Virus record (IMG/VR): IMGVR_UViG_3300027751_000009
Location: 1 to 64,000 of that record
Length of the DNA: 64,000 bases
DNA from: a virus
Lineage: Duplodnaviria > Caudoviricetes
Direction: 5' to 3' (one strand)
Made by a program: the position numbers and the translations under genes. The notes beneath the pieces are model-generated. The model was not told the DNA's origin, did not search any database, and was given only the letters and a program-made list of their open reading frames with translations. This document shows positions 2,500 through 62,543 of the stretch, one piece after another. Position 1 is the first letter of the stretch. Each line of letters begins with the position of its first letter.

Positions 2500-4788
2500 A
2501 TGAGTGTAGTTACAAAACGATTTGACCCAAAGAGTGTTTTAAAAAATAATCTAAATGTTCGTTCTAAAGTATATCATACTACAAAGAAGAACAATTACTT
2601 TGAATTTGAGATACCAGAAATTGATGGTTTTGATGCACGTAATTATTCACCATTAGTCTATCAGGAGATACCACCATTAGAGCGAGGTACATTAGCATAT
2701 GATGATTTTTGGGATGAACAGGATAGGCGTTGTTTGGAGGGATATGAACCTACTATTAACGGTGTCAAATATCCACGTATAACTGGTCCACATTATTTTT
2801 ATCTGAATATGCTTCAGATAATGATGTTAAAGCAAGGAGCTACACAGAAGAAATTGGATTATCCATTTTACAGAGTGTTAGATCACTTGCTTTTTTTAGA
2901 GATAGAGAAAGCTGGACTGTTAGGTTACGGAATTATTATTGGTAAGGCAAGACGTATGGGATTGAGTTATATTGGTGACTGTATGACTTTATACAACTTG
3001 TTATTTTTCTTAGATGCAGAAACAGCTATTGGAGCTGGTAAGGAAGATAAGGCTACAGATTTATTCAAAAAGGTTATAAAGTCTTTAGAGAATTTACGTG
3101 AGGAATATAGAGTAAGCTACAGAAAAAACAAGACAGAATTAAAGTTGTCTTATAAAATCAATGAGAACAAAGTACAGCAAGATGCTGGTATCAATTCTCA
3201 ATTAACAGTGAAAACATTTTTCAGTGACCCATCAGCATTTGAGGGTGGTAGTTACAAGTTCTTTATTTTTGAAGAGATAGGACTACAAGACAATTTGATA
3301 AAATCATATAAGGCGAGTGAGCCTTGTTTTATGGAGGGTGGTACTCAATTTGGAGTTCCTTTAATGTATGGAACAGGTGGAGAAGTAGATAAGGGTTCGC
3401 GTGATATGAAAATTATCTATGAGAAACCTGAAGCATACAATATGAAGAAGTTGTTTATTCCTGCATATTTATATTATCCTGGTTCTGTAGATAGTGAAGA
3501 TGAGGAAGAAGACAATGTAAACTTCTTTAACCCTATTACTGGGCGTACAGATGAAGTAGCTGCATTAAAGCATATTTTAGAGAGAAGAAAAAGAGCGAGT
3601 ACATCGCGTGATGGTTATATCAAAGAGGTACAGAGTAGGCCAACGGAAGAGGCTCATTTATTTCTAAAGACATCAGGAGGGCAGTTGAATCGTATTATCT
3701 TAAACGGACAACTACAAAATCTTTATGATGGTGTTAGAGCTTACACACCTAAAAGGGGTAGATTAGAATGGGTTTATGACAAGTCTTTAAACTCTCAACT
3801 ATCAAGATGTCAAACACAAAAGGAAAAAGACAAAATACATATTCTATACAAGAGTAAAGTAGATTTTATAGAAGATGAAAACGGTACTTTTTGGGAGATA
3901 GTAAAACCTATCAATACTGATGAAATGCCTTATCCAGCAGATATAGGTGGTACAGATAGTTACGATGAGATTGTTCCTGAAGATACAGGTTCTATGGGTG
4001 CTACATTAGGGTATCGTGTTTTCAATGGAACTACTAAAGATTACAATATGCCTGTTGGATTGGTGTATGAGCGTGGTGATGCAAGTAGTGACGATACGTT
4101 CTATTCTAATTCTTTAAAGTTCTGTGTACGTTACAATATGCAGACATTAGTAGAATACTCAAAAATTCTCATTATCAATTACTTTGAAGATTGTGGAGCG
4201 CAAAAGTATCTAAAGTTAAAACCTATCTTACGTAATGAGGCTATCGCTAATAAAGGTAGGCAGACTTATGGTGTTCACGTAAAAGGAGAAATGAAAGGTA
4301 TTATTACCAGGTTATTAAAGCACGAAGTAAATCATAATACGATGAATTATTGGTTAGATTTAATTTTATTAGATTTGATAGAATATGGAGATGGTAATAC
4401 GGATATAGCAATGGCTTTAGGAATGTGTTTAATTTCTAAATTGGATATGTTCGAAGAGATCACTGATGATTTAGATGGGGAATATGACGAAGGTGATGTA
4501 TTACGAGATATGGAATATTACACTTTGGATAGTGCTGGTAATTTGGTAGCTGAAACTTATGGGTTAAGTCCAAGCAGTAATTCAGATATTGATATCTTTG
4601 ACCCACGAAAACATCTCACCGGAGAGGAAAGAGAAAAATATCTTAACTTTATAGCGATTAAAAAGGAAAAGATAAAGGAACAGAAAGAACAGCAACGAGA
4701 AAAGCTAAACAATTCTGAAGACCCATTTCAGAAATCAATACAAAATGAAATCCTAAAACGAGAAAAAAATGACTTACGAACAGTTTGA
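2500..4788 (+). CDS. terL: Terminase large subunit (crAss-like type)
   Basis: Walker-A-like GKARRMGLSY, Walker-B FIFEEIG, GTGG coupling motif, RNase H-like GTDSYD and later DxAMA; size and position fit. Confidence 0.93.
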   Translation: MSVVTKRFDPKSVLKNNLNVRSKVYHTTKKNNYFEFEIPEIDGFDARNYSPLVYQEIPPLERGTLAYDDFWDEQDRRCLEGYEPTINGVKYPRITGPHYFYLNMLQIMMLKQGATQKKLDYPFYRVLDHLLFLEIEKAGLLGYGIIIGKARRMGLSYIGDCMTLYNLLFFLDAETAIGAGKEDKATDLFKKVIKSLENLREEYRVSYRKNKTELKLSYKINENKVQQDAGINSQLTVKTFFSDPSAFEGGSYKFFIFEEIGLQDNLIKSYKASEPCFMEGGTQFGVPLMYGTGGEVDKGSRDMKIIYEKPEAYNMKKLFIPAYLYYPGSVDSEDEEEDNVNFFNPITGRTDEVAALKHILERRKRASTSRDGYIKEVQSRPTEEAHLFLKTSGGQLNRIILNGQLQNLYDGVRAYTPKRGRLEWVYDKSLNSQLSRCQTQKEKDKIHILYKSKVDFIEDENGTFWEIVKPINTDEMPYPADIGGTDSYDEIVPEDTGSMGATLGYRVFNGTTKDYNMPVGLVYERGDASSDDTFYSNSLKFCVRYNMQTLVEYSKILIINYFEDCGAQKYLKLKPILRNEAIANKGRQTYGVHVKGEMKGIITRLLKHEVNHNTMNYWLDLILLDLIEYGDGNTDIAMALGMCLISKLDMFEEITDDLDGEYDEGDVLRDMEYYTLDSAGNLVAETYGLSPSSNSDIDIFDPRKHLTGEEREKYLNFIAIKKEKIKEQKEQQREKLNNSEDPFQKSIQNEILKREKNDLRTV

Positions 4789-7057
4789 ATTGCCAAATCA
4801 AAGGATGCCAGAATCTAAATGGACAAAGAAGTTGTATTTAGAGCACGCTAACAAAATGATTGAATATATCGGTAATGATGTTTTCACAAGACGTAATGAT
4901 AGTATTTCAAAATATTACAGACGTTATTCTTGTGAACTAAGTCCGAAAGAAGTACAAGCCAATGACTCTTTAACCAAACAGTATGGTTTTGATTTAGGTG
5001 TTGAGTATATGATTTATCCATTATGTGAAATGGTAGTAGACCAATTGGTTAGTGAGTATATTTCTGTTCCTATGCGAAAGAAACTATATTCTATTAATAA
5101 ATCGGCTATCAATTCAAAACTTGATGAGAAAGTTAAGTATATCAATGAAGAAATATTTAGGGCAGAGAATGAGAAGCTTGAAAACGAATTAGGTTTCATT
5201 CCTGAAACAGAAGATCCCGATATAGATTTACCTGACGATATAGAAGAATTTTTCGCTAAAGATTATAAGACCCAAGCGGAAGAAATTGGAGACGATATCA
5301 TAGAACAGTTTTTAGAAGTTCTTAAAGAAAAGCGAAAAGTAAAAACCTTACTTCAAGATTATCTTATCAGTGAGCAAGTTATAGCTACTATAGAAGAAAA
5401 AGATGGACACCCAACTATTCGCAGAGCTAAATATGATGAATGTTATATTGATGTTAATCCAGATGAAGAGATACAAAATGACATTAATATTTTTGCATAT
5501 TTCCCTTACTACACAAAGAATGAAATTCTAAACAAATACAATCTTGATACAGAGCAATTAAAAACGCTTGATGAGATATTCGCTAAAATGGAAAGTGGAA
5601 AGCTTACCAATGAACCGTTTGATTTCGGAAGAAATAATGGTGTAGATAGTGTTGGCTTTAACAATTCTAAATCTGGAGTTTCTTATAGAAACTGGTACGA
5701 TACCAATAGTAGAAATAGAATACGCGTTATGAAAATGCAATGGAAGTCACGTAAAGAGATACGTGCTAAAGTGCATACTAATCAGCATACTGGCGAAGAA
5801 ATTTACACACTGATAGGAAAAGATGAGAAACCAAGAGCGCGTGATGTTATTAAAAAAACTACGATAGAAGTTATTCGTGAAGTAGAAATGATAGGTCCAG
5901 AATTGGTTTTAAAATATGGGGAGTGTAAAGAGCGTTTATCTTTTATAGATAACAAGAAGAAAGTAATGTTACCTGTTGTGAGTCTTATTGGAAGAAATAC
6001 TATGTACACTGGAGAGATACGTTCTGTAGTAGCGAAAATAGAACCGCTACAAAAAATGGCTTCTGACTTACTATTTGAATTAAGACTTGCAATGAAAGCT
6101 AATGATGGGCGTATCTTAGTGTATGATACGGCTCAAACACCAAAGCAGTTTTTAGATCAAGGACCAGGAAAAGCATTAAACAGAGTATTGCATCACATCA
6201 AAAAAGATAAGATGTTATTATTCAATTCTAAAGACCATAAGTCCAGAGCTACTTTTAATCAGTTTACAGCATTAGATTTAAGTAATAGAGGTCAGGTAAA
6301 AGACATTATGGATGCTCTTATGTTGATGGAAGATTTAGGTAGAAAATTTGTAGGTTTATCTAAAGAGCGACAAGGAGAAGTAGGGCAGTATCAAACTAAA
6401 GGTGGAACAGATAGAGCTGTACAAGCTTCTAATGCACGTACAGAAGTTTACTTCAATCCTTTTGACGAATTTCTACAAGACCTATTAGGTAGAATGCTTA
6501 TAAAATCTAAGTCTATATACAAATCAGGACAAGTATTCCAATATATATTTGGTGACTTAAAGACCAAGTTCCTTACAGTATTCCAAGAGTACTTTAATTC
6601 TGATTTAGGTATTTATTTTGGTAATAGATTTAAAGACCAAAAAGACAAACAGATTATTGATGGGGCAGCTCAACAAGCATTATCTAATGCTTCAGATAAA
6701 GAACTAATATTAGATTTGATAAATGTACTTCAGGGAGAAAGTGCATCAGAGAGTAAAGCTATTTTAGAGAAAGGATTGAGTACTTTCCAAAAGTTACAAG
6801 CTGAAAATGCAAAAGCAGCACAAGCCGCTGAAGAAGCTAAGATGGCTCATGAAATGGCTATTGAAGATAAGATAGATGAAAGAGGAAGAGAGAAAAACAT
6901 CAACAATATTGAGGTTGCTCAAATCTATGCAGACAATAAAACGTTTAATGATACTCAAAAAATCAATTCACAAGAAGTACAAACTCTTGCTAAATTAAGT
7001 GTAGACCAATTAAAAGCAGAGAAAGATAGTATCGCTAAAGAGAAGAAAAGTGAATAG
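4769..7057 (+). CDS. Portal protein
   Basis: 762 aa directly after terL; helical with a coiled-coil C-terminus; matches the crAss-like gene order. Confidence 0.85.
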   Translation: MTYEQFELPNQRMPESKWTKKLYLEHANKMIEYIGNDVFTRRNDSISKYYRRYSCELSPKEVQANDSLTKQYGFDLGVEYMIYPLCEMVVDQLVSEYISVPMRKKLYSINKSAINSKLDEKVKYINEEIFRAENEKLENELGFIPETEDPDIDLPDDIEEFFAKDYKTQAEEIGDDIIEQFLEVLKEKRKVKTLLQDYLISEQVIATIEEKDGHPTIRRAKYDECYIDVNPDEEIQNDINIFAYFPYYTKNEILNKYNLDTEQLKTLDEIFAKMESGKLTNEPFDFGRNNGVDSVGFNNSKSGVSYRNWYDTNSRNRIRVMKMQWKSRKEIRAKVHTNQHTGEEIYTLIGKDEKPRARDVIKKTTIEVIREVEMIGPELVLKYGECKERLSFIDNKKKVMLPVVSLIGRNTMYTGEIRSVVAKIEPLQKMASDLLFELRLAMKANDGRILVYDTAQTPKQFLDQGPGKALNRVLHHIKKDKMLLFNSKDHKSRATFNQFTALDLSNRGQVKDIMDALMLMEDLGRKFVGLSKERQGEVGQYQTKGGTDRAVQASNARTEVYFNPFDEFLQDLLGRMLIKSKSIYKSGQVFQYIFGDLKTKFLTVFQEYFNSDLGIYFGNRFKDQKDKQIIDGAAQQALSNASDKELILDLINVLQGESASESKAILEKGLSTFQKLQAENAKAAQAAEEAKMAHEMAIEDKIDERGREKNINNIEVAQIYADNKTFNDTQKINSQEVQTLAKLSVDQLKAEKDSIAKEKKSE

Positions 7058-7077: not shown

Positions 7078-7107
7078 TTATAAATAAAAATCAGAAAAAC
7101 AAAAATT

Positions 7108-8079
7108 ATGGACCCAAACAACATTCAATTAGAAGAAGGACATTTCCAAAAAGAAAATGATGCCCTTGAAAATGAGTTTAAAGAGCAATTTGAACAAAAG
7201 AACGTTCCTTACACTGGAGGTATTAATCCTGACGATAAAGATATTGATGCAGCTGATGAACCGAATGGTGATGAAATCGTTGACTTTAAGTATGATGATG
7301 CTTTAGCACAAGAGGAAGCAGAAGAATTGGCAGAATTAAATATGAAATTAGGTTCTGACTTTAAGACTTTAAACGAACTTAAATCAAGTCTAAAAACTGC
7401 AGATACTAAAGATGAGCAAACAAGTATTGATAGAGAGAAACGTTATATCACTTATTTCAAAGACCTTTTAAACGAATCAAAGTATAATGATTTGCAATTA
7501 GTTACAGAAGATAAGAGGATAGCCGCTATTAATAATAACGAAGACCCTAACGATCCTTTTGTAAAAGAACGTATTGAGGAAGAAGTGGAAACATTAAGCA
7601 ATAGTGGTATGATGCAATATGCAGCAAAAGCTATTAAAGATAGTTTACGAAATTCTTTAAAAGAAAAAGAAACAGTAGTGAACGCTTATGAAAATGGAAA
7701 ACAATTAAGTGAGAAAGAAAAAGCTGATGCTTTTAAACAGAACTTGCAAGAAGGATTGAATGACATTTACAAACAAGGAAAATTTTTAGGTGTACAACCT
7801 ACAAAAGAAGATATGATTAATATCTATAAAGATATTAGCAAAAACAAACATATTGAACATTTGAAAGCAAATCCAAAAGATGCTGTCGAGTTTGCGTTAT
7901 TTAAGAAATATCGTGAGGTAATCATGAAAAACTTAGAGAAACCAAACTTTAATGCTGGAGTTCAGAGCGCTCTAAACGAGTTAGGAATGTCAAGTTCTGA
8001 ACCAGGCAAATCAGGGGGCGACACCTCCAAAAACAGCGATGATGGCGAGCTTAGTTTTTTACAAAGGTTTGCAAAATAA
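7108..8079 (+). CDS. Putative scaffolding/head assembly protein
   Basis: Acidic helical 323-aa protein between portal and capsid genes. Confidence 0.6.
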   Translation: MDPNNIQLEEGHFQKENDALENEFKEQFEQKNVPYTGGINPDDKDIDAADEPNGDEIVDFKYDDALAQEEAEELAELNMKLGSDFKTLNELKSSLKTADTKDEQTSIDREKRYITYFKDLLNESKYNDLQLVTEDKRIAAINNNEDPNDPFVKERIEEEVETLSNSGMMQYAAKAIKDSLRNSLKEKETVVNAYENGKQLSEKEKADAFKQNLQEGLNDIYKQGKFLGVQPTKEDMINIYKDISKNKHIEHLKANPKDAVEFALFKKYREVIMKNLEKPNFNAGVQSALNELGMSSSEPGKSGGDTSKNSDDGELSFLQRFAK

Positions 8080-8170
8080 ACGGTAGGCAAAGCTAACCGT
8101 AGCAAATCTTTTAAAATTCAAAGAATGTAAGATATGAGGTGCCATTCCTAAAGGCAAAGCTATTAGGGAT
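8080..8170 (+). promoter_or_regulatory. Twin hairpins with identical apical AGGCAAAGCTA in the capsid leader
   Basis: Hairpin 1 at 8080-8100 (ACGGT/ACCGT stem) and hairpin 2 at 8144-8170 (ATTCCTAA/TTAGGGAT stem) share AG-GCAAAG-CT plus a bulged A. Confidence 0.65.
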
Positions 8171-8216
8171 TAAACCATTTTTAAAAACAATTTATAAACC
8201 CTTTAAAAATTTAAAA

Positions 8217-9914
8217 ATGGGAACATTATTAAGAGGTATTAGCGAGAGATTTAATCCGCAAATACACACTGAAGATAAGTCTTTGACCGTTAATATGGCA
8301 AAGCATATGGAAATCAAAAATAAATCTTTTGATTTATTCGCAACTAAAAACAAATTCATCTCCTGGCTTTATGCTACAGGTCGTGTGAATATGGGTGCTC
8401 AAAATGGAAAAGTAATGAAAGCTTCTAATAGCATTCATGATAATGCTTTTCGTATAGCTTATAAAGGCTCTTTGTTTATCCCTGCTTATTCTTGGGGGAA
8501 AGCTACTTTCTCTACATCAAAAGCAGAACTTGCATCTATTATTGATATGACAGCATCAGGTGCTGGTGTAACTTATGGAACTGGAGTTGCTGTAGCAGCT
8601 GATATTTCACATAACGTATTATGTGCTATATCTGTAATGCATGACCCTGCTAACAATATATTTGGTGACAAGTATAATGAAGGTGATGTTATTGCTTTAG
8701 GAAATTACTTGGGAACAAGTATTATCGTTGCTGGAGATATTGGACCAGATGGTGGTTCAAAAAAAGCTGCAAGTGGAGATCACTATGTAGTTTATGGTAA
8801 AGTAAGTTCTAAATCAGGACTTTTTGATGCGGATCATTTAGCAGCCGGAGAATTATTAAGTGAAGCTGGTAACAGATTTGGTGAAGGTTCTGAAAGAGGT
8901 TTCCAAAGAGAAAGACGTACTAAATGGAGAATTAACTATTCTTTTATTTCAAGAGCTACGTTGACTATTACTGGTTCAGCTTTAAATCAAAAAGTTGCGA
9001 TTATCTATAACGATGAAACTAAAGCCACTATGTGGGAATTAGAAGCTGTTATGGACTTACGTGAGAAACACGCTATTGATATGGAAATGGGTGCTCGTCA
9101 TTCAAGAATGTCAATGGACCCAAGTTCTCATTCATGGTACGAAAATTACGGTACTAACTTACTTACATTAGAAGGTTTCACTTCTTCTATGGGTATTGTT
9201 GCTCCTGTAGTTGGTGATGGTTGGATTCCTCAATTAGAGGATAGTTTCACTATTGGTTATGATCCTAACAATGATTTAGATATCGCTGTTATTGAATTGT
9301 TCATTACTATTCTTGCTCAAAGAGCTCCGAATGGTTCTACTGGAAATACGTTTGTTATTTTAGGAGATAAGTTAGCTCATATCAAGATTGATAAAGCGCT
9401 TAAATTACTTATTGGTTTCTCACAACCAGGAGTTACTTCTACTAACAATACCAGAATGGTATTTAACGAAAGAACAGGAACTTCAAATAAAGTTGGTTTC
9501 ACTATTGATAAGTACACGTACTTAGAGAATGATATTATCTTTATTGAAGATGAATTATCTAACCACCCAGCCTTTGCACCACAAAATGGTGGTATCATAG
9601 GTACTGGAACAATGTATGTGCTTAATGCATCTATGGTAAACGGTGTTTCTAACATTGACTTGTTAGCTCGTAACGATAGAGAATTGAGAGCAAAATATAT
9701 TGATGGTATGCACTCATTAGATGCATCAAGAAACAACTCTTCTGTTGCTTTTAGTGGATTTGATGGTGGTCGTTTTGACTTATTAAGTGAAGTATTACCA
9801 ATTATATACTCAACTGAAAGTTGTGGTATCATAAAAGCAACTGCGAAGTTTGCTGGTGGTGCTTTACAAGCTGAAGCTGTAGCCAGTGAGAAAGCTGCTG
9901 TTTGGCATTATTAG
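8217..9914 (+). CDS. Major capsid protein
   Basis: 565 aa from ATG 8217 (A-rich leader); high-expression codon use; position after portal and scaffold as in crAss-like phages. Confidence 0.8.
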   Translation: MGTLLRGISERFNPQIHTEDKSLTVNMAKHMEIKNKSFDLFATKNKFISWLYATGRVNMGAQNGKVMKASNSIHDNAFRIAYKGSLFIPAYSWGKATFSTSKAELASIIDMTASGAGVTYGTGVAVAADISHNVLCAISVMHDPANNIFGDKYNEGDVIALGNYLGTSIIVAGDIGPDGGSKKAASGDHYVVYGKVSSKSGLFDADHLAAGELLSEAGNRFGEGSERGFQRERRTKWRINYSFISRATLTITGSALNQKVAIIYNDETKATMWELEAVMDLREKHAIDMEMGARHSRMSMDPSSHSWYENYGTNLLTLEGFTSSMGIVAPVVGDGWIPQLEDSFTIGYDPNNDLDIAVIELFITILAQRAPNGSTGNTFVILGDKLAHIKIDKALKLLIGFSQPGVTSTNNTRMVFNERTGTSNKVGFTIDKYTYLENDIIFIEDELSNHPAFAPQNGGIIGTGTMYVLNASMVNGVSNIDLLARNDRELRAKYIDGMHSLDASRNNSSVAFSGFDGGRFDLLSEVLPIIYSTESCGIIKATAKFAGGALQAEAVASEKAAVWHY

Positions 9915-9929
9915 AATACCTTTGGATAA

Positions 9930-9947
9930 GGGGAGCAATACTGCTCC
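9930..9947 (+). terminator. Hairpin after the capsid gene (weak terminator or stability element)
   Basis: GGGAGCA-ATAC-TGCTCCC perfect 7-bp stem; no clear U-tract. Confidence 0.45.
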
Positions 9948-9983
9948 CCTCATTCATTTAATTAAATAAAAATCAGAAAACAA

Positions 9984-39683: not shown

Positions 39684-42600
39684 ATGACCGATTTCCTAAA
39701 AGTATTACAGCAAGCACAAGTCGATAAAAATGTTTCTCAAAGAAACCCTGTAGGTTCTCCAACAGATGGTGAGAATGAAATCACTTTAACAGAACAAGAT
39801 ATAGATAACGCTAATAAGCCACAAGGTAGATTAGTAAAAGACCCTACGAATGTTAATGTGCAAGATGGTCCTAACTATCCTGGCAATGGTATTTCGCCTG
39901 AAGAAGATCCGACAGCTGGTATGACTCCTGAACAAATTGCTTTAGAGCAAACACGTATGGATAGAACACCTGTTCAGGGAGAGATATCAGAGCCTCTTCC
40001 TGAAAACCCTTATACGTGGACACCTGAATACACTCAAAGAGGTTTCGTAGAAGAAATAGGAACAAGTTTAATGCGTGGTTTTGGGAAACACGTTGTTGGT
40101 GGTACTGGAGATATTTTAGCTTTAGTAAATGGTCTTATTCCTGGTTGGGAAATCAGAGAGGGAAATGCACTTTCAAGAGGACTTCAAGAAGTAGGTAAAG
40201 AGTTTGAAGAAAACTACAAAGTCTTTATGCCTGATGAATTAAAAGACAATGAGTTTACATTAGCCACTTTTACCAATCCTAATTTCTGGACTAAAACTGC
40301 AGCTGAATACATACCTCAATTAGTAGAAATGATTATCCTTTCCAAAGGTGCTGGTGGTGTTGCTAAAAGAACAGCCCAAAGTGGTGTTAAAGGATTGTCT
40401 AAAGGAATGACAAGAGAGAGCTTAGAACGAATAGGTTCTAAAGTTGTTGCTAATTCAGAAGCACAAGTTATGAAAGGTGTTGCTGCTCAATCAAACAAAA
40501 TATTAGGTCAAGGTCCTAAAGGTTGGAGAGCACTCTTTATGGATACAACAGGAGAAGCTACTGCTGGGTTTGCTACAGGTGCTGAAATGTTTGGTGGTGG
40601 TTTAGGTATGAACTTACTTGCAGGATTGCAAAATGCTGGTGGATTAATGAATGAAATGAAAGATTTAAGAGACTCTGATGGTAATCTTTTATATACAGAA
40701 GAGCAATTAGCTGATATGGCATCAAGTACTATGATAGAGAATCTGAAGTACTTACCAGTTGATATGTTATCCTATGGTATGGTATATGCTAAATCTACAG
40801 GTCAATTCAATAAACTTTTAAATCCTTTCAATAAAACACAAGGAAAGAAATTCTTTAATTCAGCAGAGCAATTAACAGCATCAAGTAAATCTTTTACAAG
40901 AAGTATTACTCCTATTATGCAAGCTGTAAATGCAACAGAAAGCAAACTTCTTAAATATGGTAAGAAACTTAAAAATACTGCAAGTGCTGTATCTAAACCA
41001 TTGTTTGAGGGATATGAAGAAACCTTTCAAGAAACATTCGAAGATTGGGCTAAAAAGAAAGCTGTAGCGAAAGTTACAGGACAACCTATAACCATTGATG
41101 GAAAGAAAAGTGATGGCTCTATGCCTTCTTATTTTGAGTTCTATTTATCTAAAGAAAATGAAGCTACACGTACCATTGCATTTGCATTAGGTATGTTAGG
41201 TGGTGCTGGTTCCAATATTGTAGAAGCTGTAAATAAGAAAGCTGAAATAGCAGCTAAAAATTATAGCAGAGCAGAACTTATGAAACGTGCTGCAAAGAAC
41301 GAACTTGAATATGACTATCAAGCTATATTTCTTAAAGAGCAATTAGTAGATAATGCTATGGATGGTAATGTCGATAGTGTAGCAATGCTTGAAGCTATGG
41401 CAGAAGAAGGTATTATCAGTGAGGATATGAAATCTGATTACATAACATTTGCTAAAAATATGACTTTAGAAGCTGTTAAAGCAAAGTCACTTGGTCTTAA
41501 TGATTTAGGAAAGGTAGCTTACTTAAACCATAAGTTCAATGAACAAGCGAATAAGAACGGTTACAAATTTGAAAAAGCTAAAGTAGATGAGAAGATAAAA
41601 AATCTTAATGAAGAGTATCAAGGAAAAGAAGATACCAAAGAGTATAAAGCTAAAATGAAAGATGTAGAAGACTCTTGGGAAACTATGGAGAATATGTTTG
41701 CTAGAGATATTCATGAAGCTCAACAAGGTATTTTAGGAATTTTATCAGGTAAGAAAGGTGACGTTTCTAATATTACACATGAAAAACTTAAAGCTGTACA
41801 AAATCAAGAAGGAAATACTGTAGCGATAGCTTTAAGTGAGCAAGATTATAATGACTACTATAACAAAACCAATGATGAAATCTATAAAGATGCAAGGAAC
41901 AAGAAATACGACCCGAGAGGTATGTTTTCTAAATTAGGTTCCGGCGTTAAAAATGCTTTCAAAACAGTTAAAGAAGGTCTTATAGGTTTTAAAGAAAAAA
42001 CAGAAGAGAAGATCGCTGAAATCAAGAATAAAGGTCTTGATGGTTTGACACCAGAACAACGAACTCAATACGACAAAGCTAAGGCATCAAAAGAAGCTAT
42101 TGATACAGAATTAGCGTCTATGAAAATAGGTGAAGATGGAGTCACTAAAGATAGCTACAATGCGAAGAAAGCAGAAGCTACAGCTCTTGAAGTTGAGATG
42201 GCTGACTTATTAGCTAAATCTAAAGCGAATATTCAGTCTACTATTAAAAATGCAAAAGGTGGTAGAGCTTATATGGACCCTCTACTTGAACCTGAAGAAG
42301 AAGCAGATGAAGAAGCTCCTGTTCGTAAGCCTGGTATGATGGATAAGTTAATCAAATCGTTATTTACCAAGAAAAATCAAACAGAAGAAAATATCATAGC
42401 TACTGAAGAAGAGATAGCTAAGAAATTAGAAGATGCAAAGATTGACTTTACAGATGAAGTAAAAGCTAAAAAAGCTTTAGAGAGATTGATAAGTACAGAA
42501 GATGGTGTTATTCAATCACTTCAAACAAAAGATGATTTCAATAAGGAAGAGTTCATAGCTTACCTTATGAAGATGGGTAAAGAAGGAAATTTCAAATCAG

Positions 42601-45600
42601 AAACTAAAATTGAGAAAGAAGCTCGTATAGACCGTAATGCTAAAAAGAAGAAGAAAACAGAAGAAATTAAAAAAGCACAACGTGAAACGCCTACAGGTAA
42701 GAATGTAAGACAACACGATTTAGGGAAGAAATTTAACGACCCTAACTGGAATAAAGAATACAAGAAGATAGTTAAGCAAGACCCTACACAAGCTACGCTA
42801 TTGCAAGAAGAATATGATGAATATTTGTCAAGCATACAAGCTGGACTAAAATATGGGCCAACAGCTATCATTCAACAAGTAGCTGTAAACCAACATTTAC
42901 GACAATTATATCCTGATAGTAAAATTCAAGCATATGCTATGAACAATATGGTAGATGCTTTAGGTGGAACAAAAGCATTAGGTTACGCTGCTTTAGCTGG
43001 TATTTTTATTGATGAGAAAGTTTGGTTTCAAAGTGAAATCTTTATGCACGAATTTGCACATATCCATTATTCACTTTCTAAAAATGACCCTGCAACAGTA
43101 GAGCTTATGAAACAAGCGTTGAATGATAAGCAATTGGTAAGTAGAATAGAAGATGAATATGCTGATGATGTCGTTTACTATTATGCACAACCGGGTTGGA
43201 AATCTGGTATGAAAAAGGATAAAATCTTTTTTGGAGATATGACTGCTGAACAGAAAGATCAATTAGGGAAACCCCATAGGAACGGTGTTCTTATGGCTCG
43301 TAAAGCTCCTATGCACGAACAACCTGTTATTATGGATGAATTGTTTGCTAATTACTTACAAGGACCTATGTCTAAAAAGTTCTCTAAATATTTCAATCCA
43401 AGAACAGATTTACCAAGACAAGCACAAGTTAAAAATTGGTGGAGACGTATTAAAGATAAAGCTAAAAAGCAAGAAGATAACAACTTCAATTTAGCTCAAA
43501 AATTATCTGAAGAAAAATTAGATGGTACTAATATCAACGACCATATCATGAATAACTTTGTATCTATGATACAAGGAAAGCCTGTTACTGTAGGTGGTAG
43601 ATTTGCTCTTGACAATGAAAAGAGTACAATTACCAAAGAGGATAATTTAGATATTATGAAAAGGCTACGTGAAGAGCAAGCTAAATCAAGAAATAAGCAA
43701 AACAAAGCAGATATAAAAATGGTAGAGGCTTTTTATGCTCCTATCAAAATAGATGAGGATAAAAAGGGTACTCTTGTAGATGATTGGGATTTATGGGATA
43801 GACCTTTACCAGAAGCGAATGAAGAGTTTTCACAAGTTGATGCGTTAGAGAAATTAAATCAAGACATAGAAACTAACATAGGAACAATGTGGGATGATAA
43901 TTACAATGCCACAATGATGAAAACTACAGAAGTTATAAAACACTTTGTAGAGCAATTTAATAAAGTATCTAACGAAAGAAAATCAGCTGAAATAGAAGCT
44001 GTTAAAAATGATCCTAAAGCTAAAAAAGTTGATGCTATGTACACTGAAGGTATTAACCTTAATAAGTTTACAGAGGGATTAATGGATTTAGCTTATATGT
44101 ATGATTCACCTATTGATTTTATCAGAGTTTTAGAACAAACAAATGATATTCATCAAAAAGAATTTATGAAACATCTTAATGCTGAATTTAAACAAGATGC
44201 ATTACAGAGGTTAGTAACTATGCATTTGCTATATGGAAATACAGCAATAATACCCGGTATCATTCATACTGTTGATAAGAATGGAGAATACACTTCTGTA
44301 ACAGCTCAATCAGCTAATGACCCTATTATCATTAAAAGAACATTAAAACAATTATCTCGTAAAACTATAGAACAGAAAAATCTATTAGAAGATGCTATTG
44401 ATATTTTAGAGAGAGGTGATATTGAAACTAGAGAAGTTCAAGAAGCTGCTGCTGAAATAATCAAGTTCTATGGTCATGATTTAAACATTGCTAAAAAGAT
44501 AATTGGAAATGGATATCTTATTATAAATAAGAAAAACGTTCCTATTGTATCAGCTTTAAAGCAATTATTAAATGCTACTGAACAGGAGATTATTCCTTTT
44601 ACTGGAAACAAGTCTAATGATGAATTTATGATGGCTGGTACTGTGAGAACTAAGTTAAAGCCTATAAAAGATAGAAATGAGAGAATTATATCATCTATTC
44701 TATTAACAGGAAAACGTTTTGGTTCTACAAGTGTTGTTAAGGGGCCTACTGGGAACAATGTTACCACAAGAATGTTTAGCAATCACGCTATTAAATTATT
44801 CAATAAGATTGTTGTTGATTTAAAAAACTCTGAATATACTGGTAAAGCTAAGAAAGAATTTATCACGAAATATTCTAATAGTGATAAATCTGTAACAGTA
44901 TCTTCTTTTAACCCTCTTTTAGAGTCGTTTTATGACAACTTCCATTTGAAAGGAGAGTTGCCTTTAATGGTTCTTGACTTTGGTAGTAAGAATGAAATGT
45001 TCAATAAAGCTAAAAATTATAAAGATATGTCTGCTGAACAGCAACTTATCAATGAGTTGTTACAATTTACAGAGAGTATCAAGAATGAAGATTCTAATTA
45101 TTTAGGCTCTATGGATATTTTAGGGAACTCATCAAGACGTTTATTAGTAGGATTGCCACGTATTGAAAATATACTTACTGCTGATGGCAATTTCAATGCT
45201 AAAGGAGCCTCCCATCTTAATAAGATTTTTAGTATTTATGAGTCTTTAAACAAGGATAAGAAAAAAGCAATGGAAGGCATACCTAATAAAATAGGTGCTA
45301 ACTTTCCTCAATTTGAAAAAGCCATTAAAAAGGATGCTGACAAATGGATAAAATATCTTGCTGAACATTCTGAAAGCTTATCTAAAGTAAAAAGTTTACA
45401 GCCATTCTATCAAACTAAAGATGGAACAGTCCTTAATAAACTAACTAAAGAAGGAGAAACTTTAATAAAGAACTTTATCTTTAATAGAGTAGCCAATACA
45501 TTCTATGTTCACGAAATGATGAGTCCAGGTTTATTTTTAGATGGACTTACCAAAAATAACAAAGGACATGTAGCGCCTGTAATAGCATTAGACCCTCGAT

Positions 45601-48600
45601 TAAGAGTTGAAATGCTACCTATGGATGATGAGTTTAAATTAACCAGACCATTAAAAGATGAAAATGGTAAGGAAACAGAAGCTGCTTTTAGAAAGCGTTT
45701 TAAGCAATGGGAGAAAAATGTTATCGTTAGTAATGATGGTATTCAATATATCTTACCAGAACACGCTGATGCTATACAAGCTTTAAATAAAGATTTCAAT
45801 AAAGGTTATAAGCTATACTCACATACTATAGAGAAAGAGAATGCTTGGTTTGCAAATCAGACTTCTCAAATGAAAGGTTATACCACTGTACTTACAGAAG
45901 AAGCTGTGACTAATGGTAATCAACAGCATCTGTACCCTATATGGAAAATTCTTACCAATAGAAATGAGAAGTTTAAAGCCGACTATCTAAAGAAATATGG
46001 AGAAGAATATGATCCTAATTTCAGAACTCAAACAAGTGTTGATAGTGATAGACCTAAATACATTCCAATAGTAACACCTGTAAGTGCTGAAAAAGCTGGG
46101 TTATTTCATACAAAAGAACTATTAGGTTTAAAGACTAAATTCAGTTTAGAGCAACTTAAAAACCCTGAAGTACAAAAAGAATATGAAGCTTTATTAGATA
46201 AACTATACTATACTGAAAGTGGTTTTGTAGGATTAGATGGTTCTAATTTTGGACCTCAACAGATAATGGATAAGCGTTATACACAAGCGACATTCGGAAC
46301 GCAAGTATTAACGTCTATACCACACGCTAAGAAAGGAGCGCCACTGAATAATGCATTGCGTATACAAGAGCTTATCAATCAACAGAAATGGGTAAACTTT
46401 AAAAAGGCTGTTCTTGATGAAATGGCGAGTTATGAAATTGATGATGATTTTAAATACAGTAGATTTATAAGAGAAGCTGCTAATAAATTAAATTCAGACC
46501 CTTATACTATTGCGGCTTTAACTTATGGAGAGTTACCTTATTCACCTCACGTTGCTGATTTCGCAGGAAACCAATTTAGAGCTCAAATTATCAGACATGG
46601 TAACAATCTAAAAGTAACAGGTACTTATGGACAGACCATTTCAGATATGGGATATAAATTTGTAACTGATAAAAATGTAGAAGGTTTTATAAATAGACCG
46701 AATAGAGATAAAACTTATCCAGCTGTAGAACAGTTTATAGATGAGCAAGGGAATGTAAGAAGAAAAAACAATCCTAAAGTATCTAAAGAATATATAAATG
46801 GTACTTCAAAGCTAAACTCTTATGGTTGGAAAATTGTCGATGGGAAACAAGTTACTGTTCCATTTGAAATTGTACTTCCTGAACCATTACCTGGAGATCA
46901 GACTGTAGCAAGAGAGTCTATATATGATGAGTTTGGCGGTGTTGATAATGCAAGAGGAAAGTTATTACATAGAAATAAAAAAGGTTTTTTAACGAATTTC
47001 AATACCTTAAAAAGATTAAAGTTATTACATCCTAATGGTACTGTAAATACAGAAGCTATGGATTTAATGCTTGAAGAAAATGGTATCTACTCATCTCCTG
47101 TAAAAAACGAAAGAAATCGTATTGGTACTTATATACCTGGAGAAACAGTAATGCTTACAAGAATACCACATAACGGACCAGCTTTCGTAGGTGTTGCAGA
47201 AGTGGTAGGTTTTCACGATACCGGAGCTTCAAATATTATTGTTCCTGCTGAATATAGTTGGTTAGTCGGAGCTGACCACGATGGAGATGCTTTATTTATT
47301 TATCAAGCCTCTAAAAGAAAAGATGGTTCTATAGATGAGAGAATGGGAGACTCTTCGGCTGCTAAGGATAAAGGTACTATTAGAGAAGCTGGATATGGAA
47401 ATTGGAATAAAGCATTTGATATGTTAATAGAACAATGGACAGCTGAAGATATGCGTATAACTTTAGAAACACCATTGCGTTTTGAGAGTAATATGGATGC
47501 TATCATAGAAGAAAATAATGAAGCTTTAAATCCAGAGCAATATAAACAACAAAGAGCATTAGAAGAAAAACTAAATAGAGGTCTTATAGACCAAAAAGCT
47601 TTTGAAAAAAAGTTAGCTGTTATAAAAGCGGAGGCAGACTTTGTTATTCCTTTTGGTACTGAACATTACACAAAGCAATATAACAACTCTGTAGTTGCTC
47701 AACAGACTATTGGTATCGCTTTTAATACGCATAGAGCCTTGAACTTATTAGCTACCTATGAAACAATGTTATCTAATGGTACTGTTAAAGGTAAAAATTC
47801 AAAAGGTGAAATAACTGAAAAACCAAAATTAGTAAACATCAATATAGATGGACAAGTAGAGAGAGGTTTTACAGATAGGAATGCAGACAAACCAATAAAT
47901 AAGAATAAAGGTATTAATTCACGTATTCACTTATCTACTATTCTTGCCAATATCGTATTGGATAGTACTAAGAATGGACACGCTGATGCTTTAAACTTAA
48001 ACATTAATAGTATTTCTTCAGCAATGATATTAGTGAACTTAGGGTTTGATATTCAGAAAATAGGGTTACTATTTAATCACCCTATGGCAAAAGAATACAT
48101 AGAGAAACGTAATGAAATGGGGAATGACTATTTGGAAACTGGTAGTTATAAGTCTATAATTTATAAATATAAAGAGAAGTATGAAAATACCTCTTTAGAG
48201 ATCTATAGCAATCCAAGTGAATTTAGTGTTACTGTAGACCCAAAGTCAAATCGTTATAATAGTGATGAAAATGGATTTGCTATTCTAAGACTGATGCATT
48301 ATTTATCCAAAATAAGTGATGATATTTCAATCATAACTGATATTACTTCAGGTCATAACAAGATGGAATTAAATGTATTTGCTTTAGAGAAGCAAGTAAC
48401 GGATCTAAATGCTTTAATAACTAACAAGAAGCGTGAAGCTGAAATGGTTGGTAAAAAAGAAGGAAAGAAAAATTCTACTCTTTATTTTAGAGAGAAATCT
48501 GATTTAGCTGAAAATTCAATAGAACCATTAATTATAGATAGTCCTGAATTAAAGCATTATAAGAGAATGGCTTTAGAATTTATCAAGCATCAAAGACGTT

Positions 48601-51600
48601 TGAGTATTATTGAAAACCCTTCTATTAGAGATATTATTACACTTGTAAAAGATAAAGTGACAGCTTCTGCTTTAAGTGGTAGAGAGTTAAAGCATTTTTC
48701 TGAATATCTTGTTCCTTTTATCTATGGTAGATTGTTAGGTGTTAATAATATTGACGTATCAGAGATAAATGATATTTTCCAATATGAAGATGAAATTGCA
48801 GTTGGAGAAGATGCGCTATTGCCATTAGCTACAGAGTTGAAGAATTATGCAGAAATGTTAGATGATGAGCTACATACTTATTGGGAAGACCCAAACAATG
48901 TTGGAAATAAAGATACTGATTATACACGTTCTCGTTTATTCAAGCAAGGTATCATTATAGAAGCTGGAAAAATAAAACTAAATCCACAAGTATTACAACA
49001 ACATTATACGCACCCTGATAGAATAATGCTACAGAATGAATTTTCTGAATTGCCATTAGCCTTACAACGTAAATTAGTATTGTATGATTTAGTGAAAAAT
49101 GGTTGGAATGGAGAAGAGTCTTTATATCCTATTTTCCCTTATGATATTACATCTTATATAACTTCAAGAGCTAAAATGTTTAAAGAAAATGAAGAAGAAT
49201 TTGCTGATAATATCATTAAAAAAGCGTACAAAAGAATACGTGATTTAGAATCATTAGCGGCAGAAGAAAATGATATGAACTATTTGCCAAGTGTCTTTTT
49301 AAATAAAGAGCTTCCAAATTTAACAGACGATCCAAGCTCTAAATCTTTTGAAGAGTTGTATAAAAAATTAGGGCACAATAAAGCTGTTACCAATAGGATA
49401 AATGGTAGAGAAAACTTTAGAGTAAATGTATCTTATATCAGTGGTGGTAAGAGAATAAATAAGGTTATCGAAATTAATGCTATTGGCCCTTATGTTACTA
49501 AAGATGATGGTATAACCGAGTATAGTGAGTCTAAAGCTAAAGATAATGACGAATGGTCAGCTATAGCAAGAGATTTAATAACAAGTAAAACAAGTAGAGG
49601 TTTTAAACTTGTTGGAGAACCTAAATTAGAATTATTAGAAACAAGTAATAATGTGCCTAAGAGAGCTCATATGATATTGATTAATGATAATTCAACTGAT
49701 GATAATGGTGGTTTTATAAAAGATGATGGTGTAGTTCCTAACATATTGAGTAAAGAGGCTATTGATGAAGATGCTATTTTGCAAGAAGAAAAGAACTCTA
49801 AAAAAAAAAGTAGTGTCGTAGGTAGATTTTTTAAAGATGATTACTATAATTATACAAGAGAGGACTCACTAGACCAATCAGAACTAATGAACGCTTATGA
49901 ATATAAGCAATCTTTAACATACATTCAGGAGGCTCGTATTTGGCTTAATTATCTAAGAGATAAGAAAAAGACAAACAGCTTCCTGGAAAAGTATAAAGAA
50001 GGAGAATTTAAAAAGCATCTACAAGATATAGATACTGAAGAAGTTTTAAAACTTTATAACACTTGGGGTAGATATGATGCTTATGCAGCGGCTAACATTA
50101 TGGTTCCTGTTATGCTTGAACTTACCCAACGTGCTTCCAATGAACAATCAGCACTTACTAAAGTACAAGAAGGTCAAAATGATATTGGTGTAATCAAAGC
50201 TTGGTTTCAAACTAATAACATAGACTCTACACATCCAGCAACACAAGCTGTACAACGTGAATTAGAGACAGAGTTTAAAGGCTTTATGAATGAACGTAAG
50301 AAATATCTTACGCGTATCAATGATGCTACAGAAAACTTATATGCTGAAAAATTCAATTACAATCCAGCTAAAAATAGTTTCATAAAGAAAATACAGAGAG
50401 CTGCAGTATTACTATTTAAAAATCGTGATGATATTTACCGTATTCTTTATGGCAATATTATTACTACAGAATATCGTACAGAACGTGGTAAAGACCAAAA
50501 ACGATATGCATTATTATCTGATAATATCTTACGACAAAAATTAGCTAATAATGAAATCACACAAGTTGAATACAACTTTGCTAAAACATTTCGTGAGATC
50601 ACTAATGAGTTAGACCCAAAGATAAATGACGATAAATATATTGGTGGAGGAATACCAGCGATTGGTATGGGAAGATTAGAGTCTTTTGGTAGGAAAGGAC
50701 TATTAGGTGTCTTAATTAACTCTCGACCAATAGATGAGGCTATAGGTGATGTAGAGTTAGAGTTTGAAGGTCAATTAATGAGATTTAAACATATAGAAGA
50801 TATCTTTAGACAAGATAAAAAGAGCAGTTGGAAAACTAATAAAGAGTATATACAACTTCGCAATAAAGCAAAGAAACTCTTTAAAGTTAAAAAGAATGAA
50901 GATGGCTCTATGTTTAAGCATGAAGATGTGTTCAACCATACTATCTTAGGTGATGGAATGGTAAACAACTTTGCGAATGGTGGTTGGATAAATGCAGACC
51001 ATATGGCTTCATTAGATTTAAACAAAGCACTCTCTGATTTTACACATACTCAACTATTCATTACAGGTAATAAGAACTTTAAAGGTTTTAAAGCACTACA
51101 AGCTACTGTAGATGGACTTTTATTACATAACAAGATGAAAGGCTTTGTAAACCAAAACAAGTTCGTTAGAAAGGTTTATAAGGAGTATTTCTTAAAAGCT
51201 AAGAAATTACAAAAAGACAGTTCTGGAGATAGAGTGATAGATGCTATTGTTAGAGGAAACCTATTATACATAATGGGTTGGAAACTATTAGCAGTAGGTA
51301 AAGGAATGTACACTATTGGAAATGTTGTAGTAGGAAAGTATAACAACATTAAAAATCAAGGTGGTAAAGCCTGGTTAATGGGAGAGAGTAGATTTTGGGG
51401 TAAACATAAAAAAGCTATGGGTATCTTAAAAACTATAAACTTTACAGATGCTAATTTCTATGACGATGTGAACTTACAATCCTCATCAGGATTAGATTCT
51501 ATATTTACTGATATTGCTCTTTGGCCTATGATGGCTTCAGAGAAATGGATTCAAGGTGTACACTTTTTAGGAATGTTATCAAAAGAGCAATATGATAAAT

Positions 51601-60798: not shown

Positions 60799-62133
60799 CT
60801 ATGCTGATTTTAATTTGACTTCTTTTTGCTTTGCTATCTTCTTGATAGTTCTAAGGTTCTTTGTAAGAGTAGCTATAATAGGTTTATTATACCTTGATGC
60901 TTTATTGCCTAAACCTCTGGATTGAACTATGGTAAAATTCTCTAATGAAACTTCTATAGTTTCTTTAGGTTTTCCTTTATAGTAACCACAAAGTAATAGT
61001 GCATCTTCTTCTCTATGATATCCATTAGTATGAATACAATGCTTAAAAAGATTACCTAATTTCTCTACTTCATCTACAGTTTTTATAACTGTGATCATTA
61101 CATCTCCATTTTTAAATTCAAGTTCTTTCCATCGTTCCATACGTTTACTATACCACTCTTTATCTTTACGTAATTTTTCAAGCTCTGCTTGTTTACGTTC
61201 TTCATCTTTCATTCTTCTTATAGCTTCATATTGCTTTTGTTTTTTCTTGACATAGACATTATGAGCTTCTTTAAAGTTCTCTGGACAAACATATTTAGGA
61301 CTTCTTAAATCTTTACCAAATTCTTCTAAAAGCTTTAAGTAATCTAAATAATTTTCCATTTTCTTTATCTTATATTTATTTCTAAATACTATCTTAAATG
61401 AAGACCAATATTTCTGTATCTGCTCTCTTCTGTAGCTATAACAACAAGTTTGAAAGCCATCTACATATCCAAGTTTTAGCAATGTTTCAGCTATTGGAAA
61501 AGTAAGCAATAACCAGAACGTAGTAAACGGTGTAATATTATCATCGTATTTTTCAAGACCATTTCTTTTAATGATAGGTAGATATTTAATACGTGGATAA
61601 GTATAGTTTACATGTTGGTCGTGTGCATTGATAGACTTGTTATTCTTTAGAGAGAACTCTCCAAAAAATCTACTACCATACCAACCAGCCATTCTACCAT
61701 AACCAATGATAGCGTGTTTACCTTGTTCGTTAAGATATATTCTTGAATTTTCAAAAATCCAATAAACACCTTTCTCTTTCGTTTTGTAGGTACATCGTAT
61801 TTCAAATAGTCTGATAACTTGATACTCTTTGAAAGTTGTTATTATTCTGAACTCTCTTGTTTCTCCGTATGTTCTATGTTGCGTTGAAACTATTTTTAGT
61901 TTATGCTTACAGTTAGGACAGTTATCACCCATTACTTCATCTTGCCAACCTTGTGTAGTATGAACTTTATATACGTGACCACAATGTAGACAATGGATAT
62001 TTCCTGACTTATTACGGAAAGCAACAAAGCTATGTGCGTTCTCTCTGGCCCACTTCATTTGGGTTTGAGTTATCTTTGGTAGCTTTTTATCTAAAGCCAC
62101 TATCTCTCTCTGAAATTTAGTCTTTGCTTGCAT
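60799..62133 (-). CDS. PcfJ-domain protein
   Basis: N-terminal CxxC zinc motifs; DYL.LL..FGKD....YVCP.NF.EAH; G....HCI...Y..GY.N; directly after a PcfK-like gene. Confidence 0.85.
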   Translation of the reverse strand: MQAKTKFQREIVALDKKLPKITQTQMKWARENAHSFVAFRNKSGNIHCLHCGHVYKVHTTQGWQDEVMGDNCPNCKHKLKIVSTQHRTYGETREFRIITTFKEYQVIRLFEIRCTYKTKEKGVYWIFENSRIYLNEQGKHAIIGYGRMAGWYGSRFFGEFSLKNNKSINAHDQHVNYTYPRIKYLPIIKRNGLEKYDDNITPFTTFWLLLTFPIAETLLKLGYVDGFQTCCYSYRREQIQKYWSSFKIVFRNKYKIKKMENYLDYLKLLEEFGKDLRSPKYVCPENFKEAHNVYVKKKQKQYEAIRRMKDEERKQAELEKLRKDKEWYSKRMERWKELEFKNGDVMITVIKTVDEVEKLGNLFKHCIHTNGYHREEDALLLCGYYKGKPKETIEVSLENFTIVQSRGLGNKASRYNKPIIATLTKNLRTIKKIAKQKEVKLKSA

Positions 62134-62543
62134 TAGAATAAAGTAGGTTCGTTATCACTTGATAATGTTGAGGTTTTAGGTGCCTCTGGTTTCTTTAACA
62201 TTTTATTTCGTTCTTGTTGTATAAGACTGTCGATAGCTTTCTGTTTAGCTTCAGCTTTTTCTTCTTCTGTAAGAACTACTGTGTGATTAACAACAACACT
62301 ACCATTAAATGCACCACCTATTTCAATATTATCTTCATCGTAATAATGATAAGCCATATTGAATATCTCACTATCTTCAAATCCATTACATCCACTTTTC
62401 TGAACTTGATTTAGAATATAGGTAATACAATCATCTATATTCTTTTCTTCATTTTGAAATCTAACCTCAAAGAAAGGATCTTCGGATGCTCTTTCATTTA
62501 AGTCTTTTAGAATTGCTTCCTTAAACGCTTTCGTTGTTTTCAT
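62133..62543 (-). CDS. PcfK-like / AcrIIA9-family protein
   Basis: FK..I...L..RA..D..F......KNIDDCITYILNQV..SGC.G..D.E....A.HYYDED.I...VVVNH...LTEEEK. Confidence 0.85.
   Translation of the reverse strand: MKTTKAFKEAILKDLNERASEDPFFEVRFQNEEKNIDDCITYILNQVQKSGCNGFEDSEIFNMAYHYYDEDNIEIGGAFNGSVVVNHTVVLTEEEKAEAKQKAIDSLIQQERNKMLKKPEAPKTSTLSSDNEPTLF

Follow-up and report, generated by a model that had tools for sequence, protein, structure and literature searches.

The capsid locus and its setting

The window analyzed here, 64,000 nucleotides in length, comprises the opening 64 kb of a virus record of 78,890 bases, rated complete by CheckV. Its genes run in the order TerL (2500-4788), portal (4769-7057), a 323-aa gene (7108-8079) and the capsid gene (8217-9914), the same order of TerL, portal, 323-aa gene and MCP as in phi14:2 and crAss001. 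The product of the capsid gene matched PF23898 Crass_capsid (E 3.3e-6, 26.2 bits, just below the cut-off of 27) and the major head protein family phrog_11589 (E 2.2e-5), and a crAss_MUZ muzzle domain, on a 3268-aa protein, and CrAss_Ring_2 were found near the capsid gene. The known matches of TerL and portal were to Crassvirales alone, at 22-26% identity, apart from additional matches of TerL to Flavobacterium phages, and blastn and tblastn searches with the capsid region against the cultured phages in INPHARED gave no match. Given the distance of TerL and portal, the crAss-type capsid, muzzle and ring matches and the lack of a cultured match for the capsid region, we assign the record to a deep-branching, uncultured crAss-like phage. 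The 323-aa gene matched no Pfam and no PHROG family, and its product showed no similarity to phi14:2 g092 by BLASTP; we call it a scaffold gene from its position only. The predicted features of the locus are as follows.

7108-8079, plus strand: 323-aa gene upstream of the capsid gene, from the list of open reading frames, in the position of phi14:2 g092 and crAss001 gp31
8063-8111, plus strand: HP1-long, with a lower helix (8063-8072/8102-8111) and HP1 on top
8080-8100, plus strand: HP1 upper hairpin, with a 5-bp stem, an A8085.A8095 mismatch, a stem of G.U, G-C and C-G pairs and an AAA triloop (8089-8091)
8117-8137, plus strand: A/U-rich spacer, predicted to be single-stranded, with a loosely conserved GUAAnAU box (alignments anchored on HP2)
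8138-8176, plus strand: HP2 with its outer clamp (GGU 8138-8140/ACC 8174-8176) and main stem (8144-8151/8163-8170)
within 8138-8176, plus strand: HP2 apex, with an A8152.A8162 mismatch, an apical stem (8153-8155/8159-8161) and an AAA triloop (8156-8158)
8175-8220, plus strand: HP3, the start-masking helix, with arms 8175-8185 (CCAUUUUUAAA) and 8210-8220 (UUUAAAAAUGG) and an A-rich loop (8186-8209)
8217-9914, plus strand: major capsid protein gene of crAss type (PF23898 Crass_capsid, phrog_11589)
9929-9950, plus strand: strong G+C-rich hairpin of 8 bp, 15 nt past the capsid stop, from a scan for terminator-like hairpins

None of 45 gene starts carries an SD-like 4-mer, the leaders are 50% A, and the motif TAnnTTTG precedes several genes; the absence of SD sites and the presence of TAnnTTTG both fit a Bacteroidota host. 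Two reports on Bacteroidota describe initiation as tuned by structure and by A residues around the start codon (PMC6847099, PMC3155529).

The hairpin at 9929-9950 is the probable 3´ end or stabilizer of the capsid message. We also noted a promoter-like sequence, TACCTTTG, that is followed directly by this hairpin (9917-9950), with no good U tract, and the stretch may combine the end of the capsid message with the beginning of the next transcription unit. One and the same leader box of 15 nt, ATAAAAATCAGAAAA, occupies 7084-7098 and 9966-9980, just 5´ of the ATGs of the genes that start at 7108 and 9984, and the capsid gene between them has the structured leader instead; with up to two mismatches the box has seven matches, against 2.1 expected. 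Elsewhere in the window, a 4163-aa ORF (39684-52175) without a Pfam or PHROG family may, to judge by its size and position, encode a crAss-like virion RNA polymerase, and PcfJ-like and PcfK-like proteins, of families known in Bacteroides conjugative elements, adjoin the DnaB helicase in the early region (60799-62543, minus strand).

Three helices in the capsid leader

The original prediction was of twin hairpins upstream of the capsid gene, and the sequence of 8080-8170 is exactly as it described: the hairpins start 64 nt apart, with their apices 67 nt apart. HP1 (ACGGT-A-GGC-AAA-GCT-A-ACCGT, 8080-8100) and HP2 (ATTCCTAA-A-GGC-AAA-GCT-A-TTAGGGAT, 8144-8170) carry an identical 11-mer, AGGCAAAGCTA, on unrelated stems. 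By exact match, this 11-mer occurs twice in the window against 0.15 copies expected, a count reached in one of 100 shuffles, and only twice in the whole 78,890-base record. Both hairpins were predicted by RNAfold, and RNAalifold returned both from 10 close genomes.

To collect capsid leaders from relatives, as had been proposed together with covariance modeling, we carried out capsid-based searches of IMG/VR and JGI metagenomes, which gave 58 loci with 40 distinct leaders at capsid identities of 37-83%. Across these relatives, all uncultured, two hairpins stand at the same places with compensatory changes in their stems. For the 10 close genomes, 95.8% of the cells of the named structure were paired and 12 of 19 pairs had changes on both sides; such changes were seen in 4 of 6 pairs for HP1 (10 genomes) and in 8 of 11 pairs for HP2. 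None of 500 shuffles reached the observed pairing or changes, and partners that were slid out of register were at most 44% paired. The outer clamp of HP2 likewise varies among relatives with compensation (GGU/ACC, GGAG/UUCC, GGU/GCC, GAC/GUC, GAUU/GGUC). That the structure is a selected one, as had been argued from the same loop on different stems, is supported for the sense strand, with strong covariation across relatives.

Covariation also redraws the apex, which had been described as a GCAAAG hexaloop on an AG/CT stem with a bulged A, and backs instead an AAA triloop on a 3-bp stem, with an A.A mismatch below it. In relatives with GAC-AAA-GTC in place of GGC-AAA-GCT, a G-C pair becomes A-U and a G.U pair becomes G-C, and from this GAC-AAA-GUC variant we define the apex as a purine.A mismatch, three base pairs closed by C-G, and a triloop. 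Triloop hairpins of this kind, with a 3-bp stem and C-AAN-G, were present in both expected zones in 28 of the 40 distinct leaders, against background frequencies of 0.05 and 0.035 per zone. In clade B the apices were misaligned by MAFFT and RNAalifold, so that of HP2 no more than the lower stem was returned; the triloops of this clade were counted by script.

The leader element proved larger than the twin hairpins, comprising three helices in the region 8057-8220. The first, HP1-long, places HP1 on a lower helix whose 5´ arm consists of the final codons of the 323-aa gene and whose 3´ arm follows HP1; the helix may extend outward to 8057/8116 or 8132. The TAA stop of the upstream gene (8077-8079) lies within the 7-nt internal loop (8073-8079). 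The dimensions of HP1-long are a lower helix of 9-16 bp, the 7-nt internal loop and an upper hairpin of 8 bp. The sequences of the two arms vary among 13 clade-A genomes, yet within each genome its own arms match: the duplex between native flanks averaged -14.6 kcal/mol against -7.0 +/- 3.1 kcal/mol for cross-genome combinations, and the native duplex was the best of its row and its column in 8 of 13 genomes.

The hairpins had been taken to fill the whole gap between the scaffold and capsid genes, which overlooked a third helix, formed by 8171-8216 together with the start codon. In this helix, HP3, a conserved box directly 3´ of HP2, CCAUUUUU, pairs with AAAAAUGG, and the AUG at 8217-8219 lies inside the helix, so that the pairing masks the capsid start codon. 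A register test gave a helix of 10-13 bp for 12 of the 13 genomes of clade A, with U and A runs that track each other in length and with swaps of U-A and A-U, in register, at positions 8-10. HP3 is a helix of A-U pairs and of low stability (-6.6 to -9.8 kcal/mol for most of these genomes), and its U and A runs could have other causes. In clades B and C the helix ends 5-12 nt before the AUG; a clade at about 47% capsid identity has the same three-helix plan, with the third helix ending about 10 nt 5´ of the AUG. The clamp of HP2 ends at C8176, and HP2 thus adjoins HP3, with two C residues common to both.

Other uses of the leader sequence were considered. The spacer at 8117-8137 could be an endonuclease site or hold a weak -10-like hexamer (TAAGAT, 8128-8133). 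The 3´ arm of HP1 could form no more than 3 bp with the 5´ arm of HP2, and an attenuator based on this alternative pairing was rejected on that ground. A GTG-started extension of the capsid gene over 8139-8216 was judged to be non-coding since the indels of the relatives are not multiples of three.

A covariance model, R1, was built from the close clade and used to examine how specific the element is. On the whole genome R1 gave one match, at 8073-8221, and on the relatives, including the clade at 47% identity, it matched the capsid leader only, bar one weak sub-threshold match (E 0.26; L054, L073). Nor did the module turn up at another intergenic site when the genome was scanned for hairpins. 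R1 did not match the regions of crAss001 and phi14:2 that were examined; the gaps before the capsid genes of these phages are only 34 and 31 nt, and hold no such leader. The exact twin 11-mer was of little use as a search key, since 12 of its 14 matches in IMG/VR were unrelated coding tandem repeats and two were capsid leaders of relatives. An Rfam hit would have removed the novelty proposed for the element; the whole window had no Rfam 15 match at gathering thresholds, and permissive E-values gave only three chance-level matches in 7950-8260 (E 5-9, far below gathering). Literature searches found no description of such a capsid leader. As modeled from folding and covariation, HP1 and HP2 are real, conserved RNA structures in a three-helix leader, and this leader is probably an uncatalogued control element that sets the amount of capsid protein. 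As a separate observation, six clade C leaders (L044, L051, L054, L067, L069, L075) have a GCC-AAW-GGC triloop mini-hairpin in the upstream coding sequence at about -170 from the capsid ATG, which may be a third copy of the module or merely a conserved peptide.

To determine which strand folds, we compared predictions for the two. The sense leader (8045-8225) folds at -40.7 kcal/mol with z = -2.97 in RNAfold, and the antisense leader at -30.8 kcal/mol with z = -0.70. Of 13 genomes, 12 have a sense fold of HP2 that is more stable than its antisense counterpart and 10 have a more stable sense fold of HP1-long, and the sense strand has 75 G.U pairs against 29 for the antisense strand. Because the G.U pairs and fold energies favor the sense strand, the alternative of a single-stranded DNA hairpin, which had been left open, is disfavored, and the predictions favor coding-sense RNA as the folding molecule over a template-strand DNA hairpin or a palindromic duplex site.

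Concerted loop change and its possible explanations

The matching of the two loops on different stems, on which the original prediction was built, is a real signal, as both loops change together in the close clade. On the capsid tree, in which this clade is well supported, the two apical motifs changed jointly at least five times within it. Within the close clade, the ancestral GGC-AAA-GCU was replaced by GAC-AAA-GUC (L030/L032) or its loop by AAG (L035) or AAC (L070), and in a sister group the replacements were a GCGAGUA loop (L037), UGC-ANGAA-GCG (L078) and UGG-N4-CCG (L038). Each derived motif is carried by both hairpins of its genome; solitary changes were seen twice, in the HP1 loop of L028 and the HP2 loop of L033. 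The apex-to-apex spacing is 66-70 nt in the close clade. Strict loop matching holds in one clade only, since in distant clades the two apical stems differ and C-AAN-G with the flanking A.A is all that is common to both. To judge from the sequences, the concerted change points to a shared, co-evolving and probably phage-encoded binding partner; the match between the loops could also be kept by copying between the two repeats.

We searched the genome for such a partner. Pfam scans of about 40 proteins gave no candidate binder beyond an HU/IHF-like protein, and among the early and middle genes they recognized only HU/IHF-like, DnaB, FEN, PcfJ/K and CAP. No coding-strand ORF of up to 200 aa has the two CxxC motifs of a Com-like zinc finger, the one hit being spurious and in an antisense frame. 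None of the small ORFs scanned has an arginine-rich stretch, the highest content being 4 R in 20 residues; a divergent binder could escape such a search. The HU/IHF-like protein (PF00216, PF18291; 58975-59337, minus strand) is the sole recognizable nucleic-acid-binding architectural protein; proteins of this type are common in crAss-like phages.

The mechanism that we propose starts from a structured sense mRNA, the region 8057-8220 between the scaffold-position gene and the capsid gene, in which HP1-long encloses the upstream stop, HP2 is held by its outer clamp, and HP3 buries the capsid start. HP1 and HP2 both present one module, in which an AAN triloop tops a 3-bp stem closed by C-G, with a purine.A mismatch below. 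A single sequence-specific factor would dock on both, most likely an RNA-binding protein that the phage encodes and that is possibly a dimer. HP2 adjoins HP3 and competes with it for two C residues, and occupancy of HP2 would therefore open or lock the start-codon helix and thereby set the level of capsid translation, and on HP1 the factor would act on the 3´ end of the upstream message. The binding of a protein, its identity and the direction of its effect are what we infer here, as is the control of the scaffold:capsid ratio put forward in the original prediction; the helices, their conservation, the strand that folds, the joint loop changes and the masked start codon are shown by the analysis. 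The function is most likely post-transcriptional control of capsid output in an SD-less host. That HP1 and HP2 are the docking sites of one factor, which sets capsid translation via the start-codon helix, is a tentative reading that we hold with a little less than even confidence. A more specific version, in which the twin modules are the operator of an unrecognized phage-encoded RNA-binding regulator that co-evolves with its two sites and gates capsid translation, is possible but doubtful.

The main rival is a processing and stability cassette without a dedicated binder, which we regard as unlikely. A host endonuclease would cut the polycistronic late transcript, in the A/U-rich spacer if it is RNase E, G or Y and in HP1-long if it is RNase III, leaving HP1-long to protect the upstream 3´ end and HP2 with its clamp to protect the capsid 5´ end, so that the capsid segment would outlast its neighbors. 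Several features of the locus suit such a cassette: HP1-long is irregular, has about 20 bp or more and an internal loop, and is comparable in size to the RNase III sites of T7; the spacer that separates the two stable hairpins is conserved and predicted to be single-stranded; and the capsid stop is directly followed by a strong hairpin. TAnnTTTG is absent from 38 of 40 capsid leaders, whereas the flanking genes have one. However, pure stabilizers need no conserved loop, and C-AAN-G, the flanking A.A and the concerted loop switches would be unexpected; triloops are not especially stable, and HP3 is left unexplained. The lack of a host-type promoter in the capsid leader fits phi14:2, in which promoters were mapped before g092 and g093, the two upstream genes, and not before g091, and the capsid RNA is still the most abundant (10.1101/2020.03.07.982082). 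An element that acts at the level of transcription appears more clearly unlikely. It could take the form of an intrinsic terminator or attenuator made of HP2 and the U run and overridden by a factor, of an antitermination signal in which the hairpin pair acts on RNA polymerase, like HK022 put or lambda nut, or of a spacer promoter that starts a transcript at the base of HP2, like the T7 phi10 leader with its 5´ stem-loop. HP2 with its clamp is followed directly by A and 4-7 U in clades A and B, a terminator-like form, but the U run is not adjacent to HP2 in clade C, and the terminator scan did not list HP2. Since the U run is accounted for by its pairing with the A run before the AUG, with lengths that covary, the terminator, antiterminator and promoter readings are less supported. 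An A/T-rich -10-like hexamer ends 6-8 nt 5´ of the HP2 base in many genomes, yet it is poorly conserved and no promoter-like site scored in 8080-8216; a sense host promoter in the leader was rejected given the missing TAnnTTTG, the lack of a sigma-70-like site and the weakness of the hexamer. The 44-kb rightward late block downstream would presumably gain from processive antitermination, but no N- or Q-like protein was recognized and there was no Rfam match to put.

The remaining explanations move the action to DNA or to the ribosome. At the DNA level, the hairpins might be extruded as N4-type promoters for a virion RNA polymerase, contain antisense host promoters, or serve as two direct repeats bound by a protein such as the HU-like one, for which a gene is present; we consider all of this very improbable. 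Stems of 5-8 bp with a 3-nt loop do resemble N4 early promoters, but as template-strand hairpins they would carry C.A mismatches, and the minus-strand version is the less stable in the genomes counted above, with the G.U pairs likewise on the side of the sense strand. The reverse complement of the apex, TAGCTTTG, matches TAnnTTTG on the minus strand at both apices, but this Bacteroidota -7 promoter motif is not conserved there: some 10 of the 40 leaders have it, and just four at both hairpins, and with this share of about a quarter the antisense promoter was rejected. A dimeric binder of duplex DNA would not need each of two different stems within a genome to be self-complementary, and in phi14:2 the capsid genes are late genes transcribed by the host polymerase. 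Recoding or coupling, whether by bypass or reinitiation that yields a fused or coupled capsid product or by upstream translation that opens the capsid start, is barely credible. The upstream stop is located directly at the foot of HP1, in a helix that ribosomes must melt, but when folding was simulated with a ribosome held at the stop, the start region stayed closed and its mean unpaired probability was essentially unchanged over 13 genomes, and structural coupling to upstream translation was rejected. Bypass to a matching landing codon was rejected as well, given that the last sense codon and the codon before the AUG mismatch in L058 and L037, and the gap is filled with stop codons and with indels whose lengths are not divisible by three.

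Crassvirales and their relatives belong to the Bacteroidota phages of highest abundance, and almost nothing is known of post-transcriptional control of their late genes or of translation regulation in SD-less hosts. The leader is a compact, well-defined RNA that can be tested with mutations in the loops, the mismatch, the stems with compensation, and the start-masking helix, and the co-evolving loop identity offers a handle for finding the RNA-binding protein. If the matched-loop design is general in capsid leaders, it would provide a new family of regulatory RNAs for phage annotation as well as parts for expression control in Bacteroidota.

Comparison with known systems

The likeness to an MS2-type operator that the original prediction had drawn does not extend to the defining features. 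In the MS2/PP7 operators a dimeric phage protein that controls translation recognizes a small hairpin in which an unpaired A sits beneath a short loop. The MS2 operator consists of one hairpin only; its loop is 4 nt long, a true bulged purine lies two pairs under the loop, and the regulated gene has its start codon within the hairpin. The present apex, in contrast, combines a loop of 3 nt and a stem of 3 bp with a symmetric mismatch, A.A or G.A. The AUG belongs to a separate helix, HP3, with the apex of HP2 62 nt upstream (61-66 nt across the close clade), and the phage has a dsDNA genome and a capsid protein of crAss type.

The gene 10 unit of T7 consists of the scaffold gene, a signal with a stable 5´ hairpin, an A/U-rich leader without structure, the capsid gene and a strong hairpin, and the same order of scaffold-position gene, hairpins, capsid gene and strong hairpin is found here. 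T7 also has long irregular hairpins with internal loops, which are cut to leave protective 3´ hairpins, and HP1-long as predicted has the shape of such an RNase III site, irregular, of about two helical turns and with an internal loop, with complementarity that is genome-specific. Unlike T7, the locus has no T7-type promoter or polymerase and no SD site, and T7 in turn is without matched loops and a start-masking helix.

Two hairpins per genome with a common apical motif are known from N/boxB of lambdoid phages, where the motif differs by lineage along with the specificity of the phage protein, and the concerted loop switches described above are of this type. BoxB, however, has a 5-bp stem with a GNRA-like pentaloop, lies after the early promoters in two operons and is paired with boxA, whereas the hairpins here are mostly triloops (28 of 40 leaders, the only pentaloop being the ANGAA of L078) that stand in tandem in a single intergenic region of the late genes, and the scan of small ORFs gave no N-like protein with an arginine-rich motif. 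CsrA/RsmE homodimers bridge two loops that have the same short motif on unrelated stems tens of nt apart and so control initiation. The two same-motif loops on unrelated stems, with their spacing kept at 66-70 nt in the close clade, recall this arrangement, but CsrA has GGA as its motif and binds one site that overlaps the SD, in contrast to AAN loops and no SD here; Pfam scans of the phage proteins found no CsrA-like gene.

By analogy, the nearest working precedent is Com and mom of phage Mu, in which Com binds a small hairpin beside, and just upstream of, a structure that sequesters the start, and the binding remodels this structure and activates translation (PMC6483171). HP2 and HP3 have the same arrangement of a hairpin beside a start-masking structure, with HP3 found in 12 of 13 close genomes. 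They differ from the Mu system in that no coding-strand ORF of up to 200 aa encodes a CCCC zinc finger and the loop motif CC(N)2-3GAG is absent, and in that there are two matched hairpins rather than one, with a capsid gene as the regulated gene in an SD-less host.
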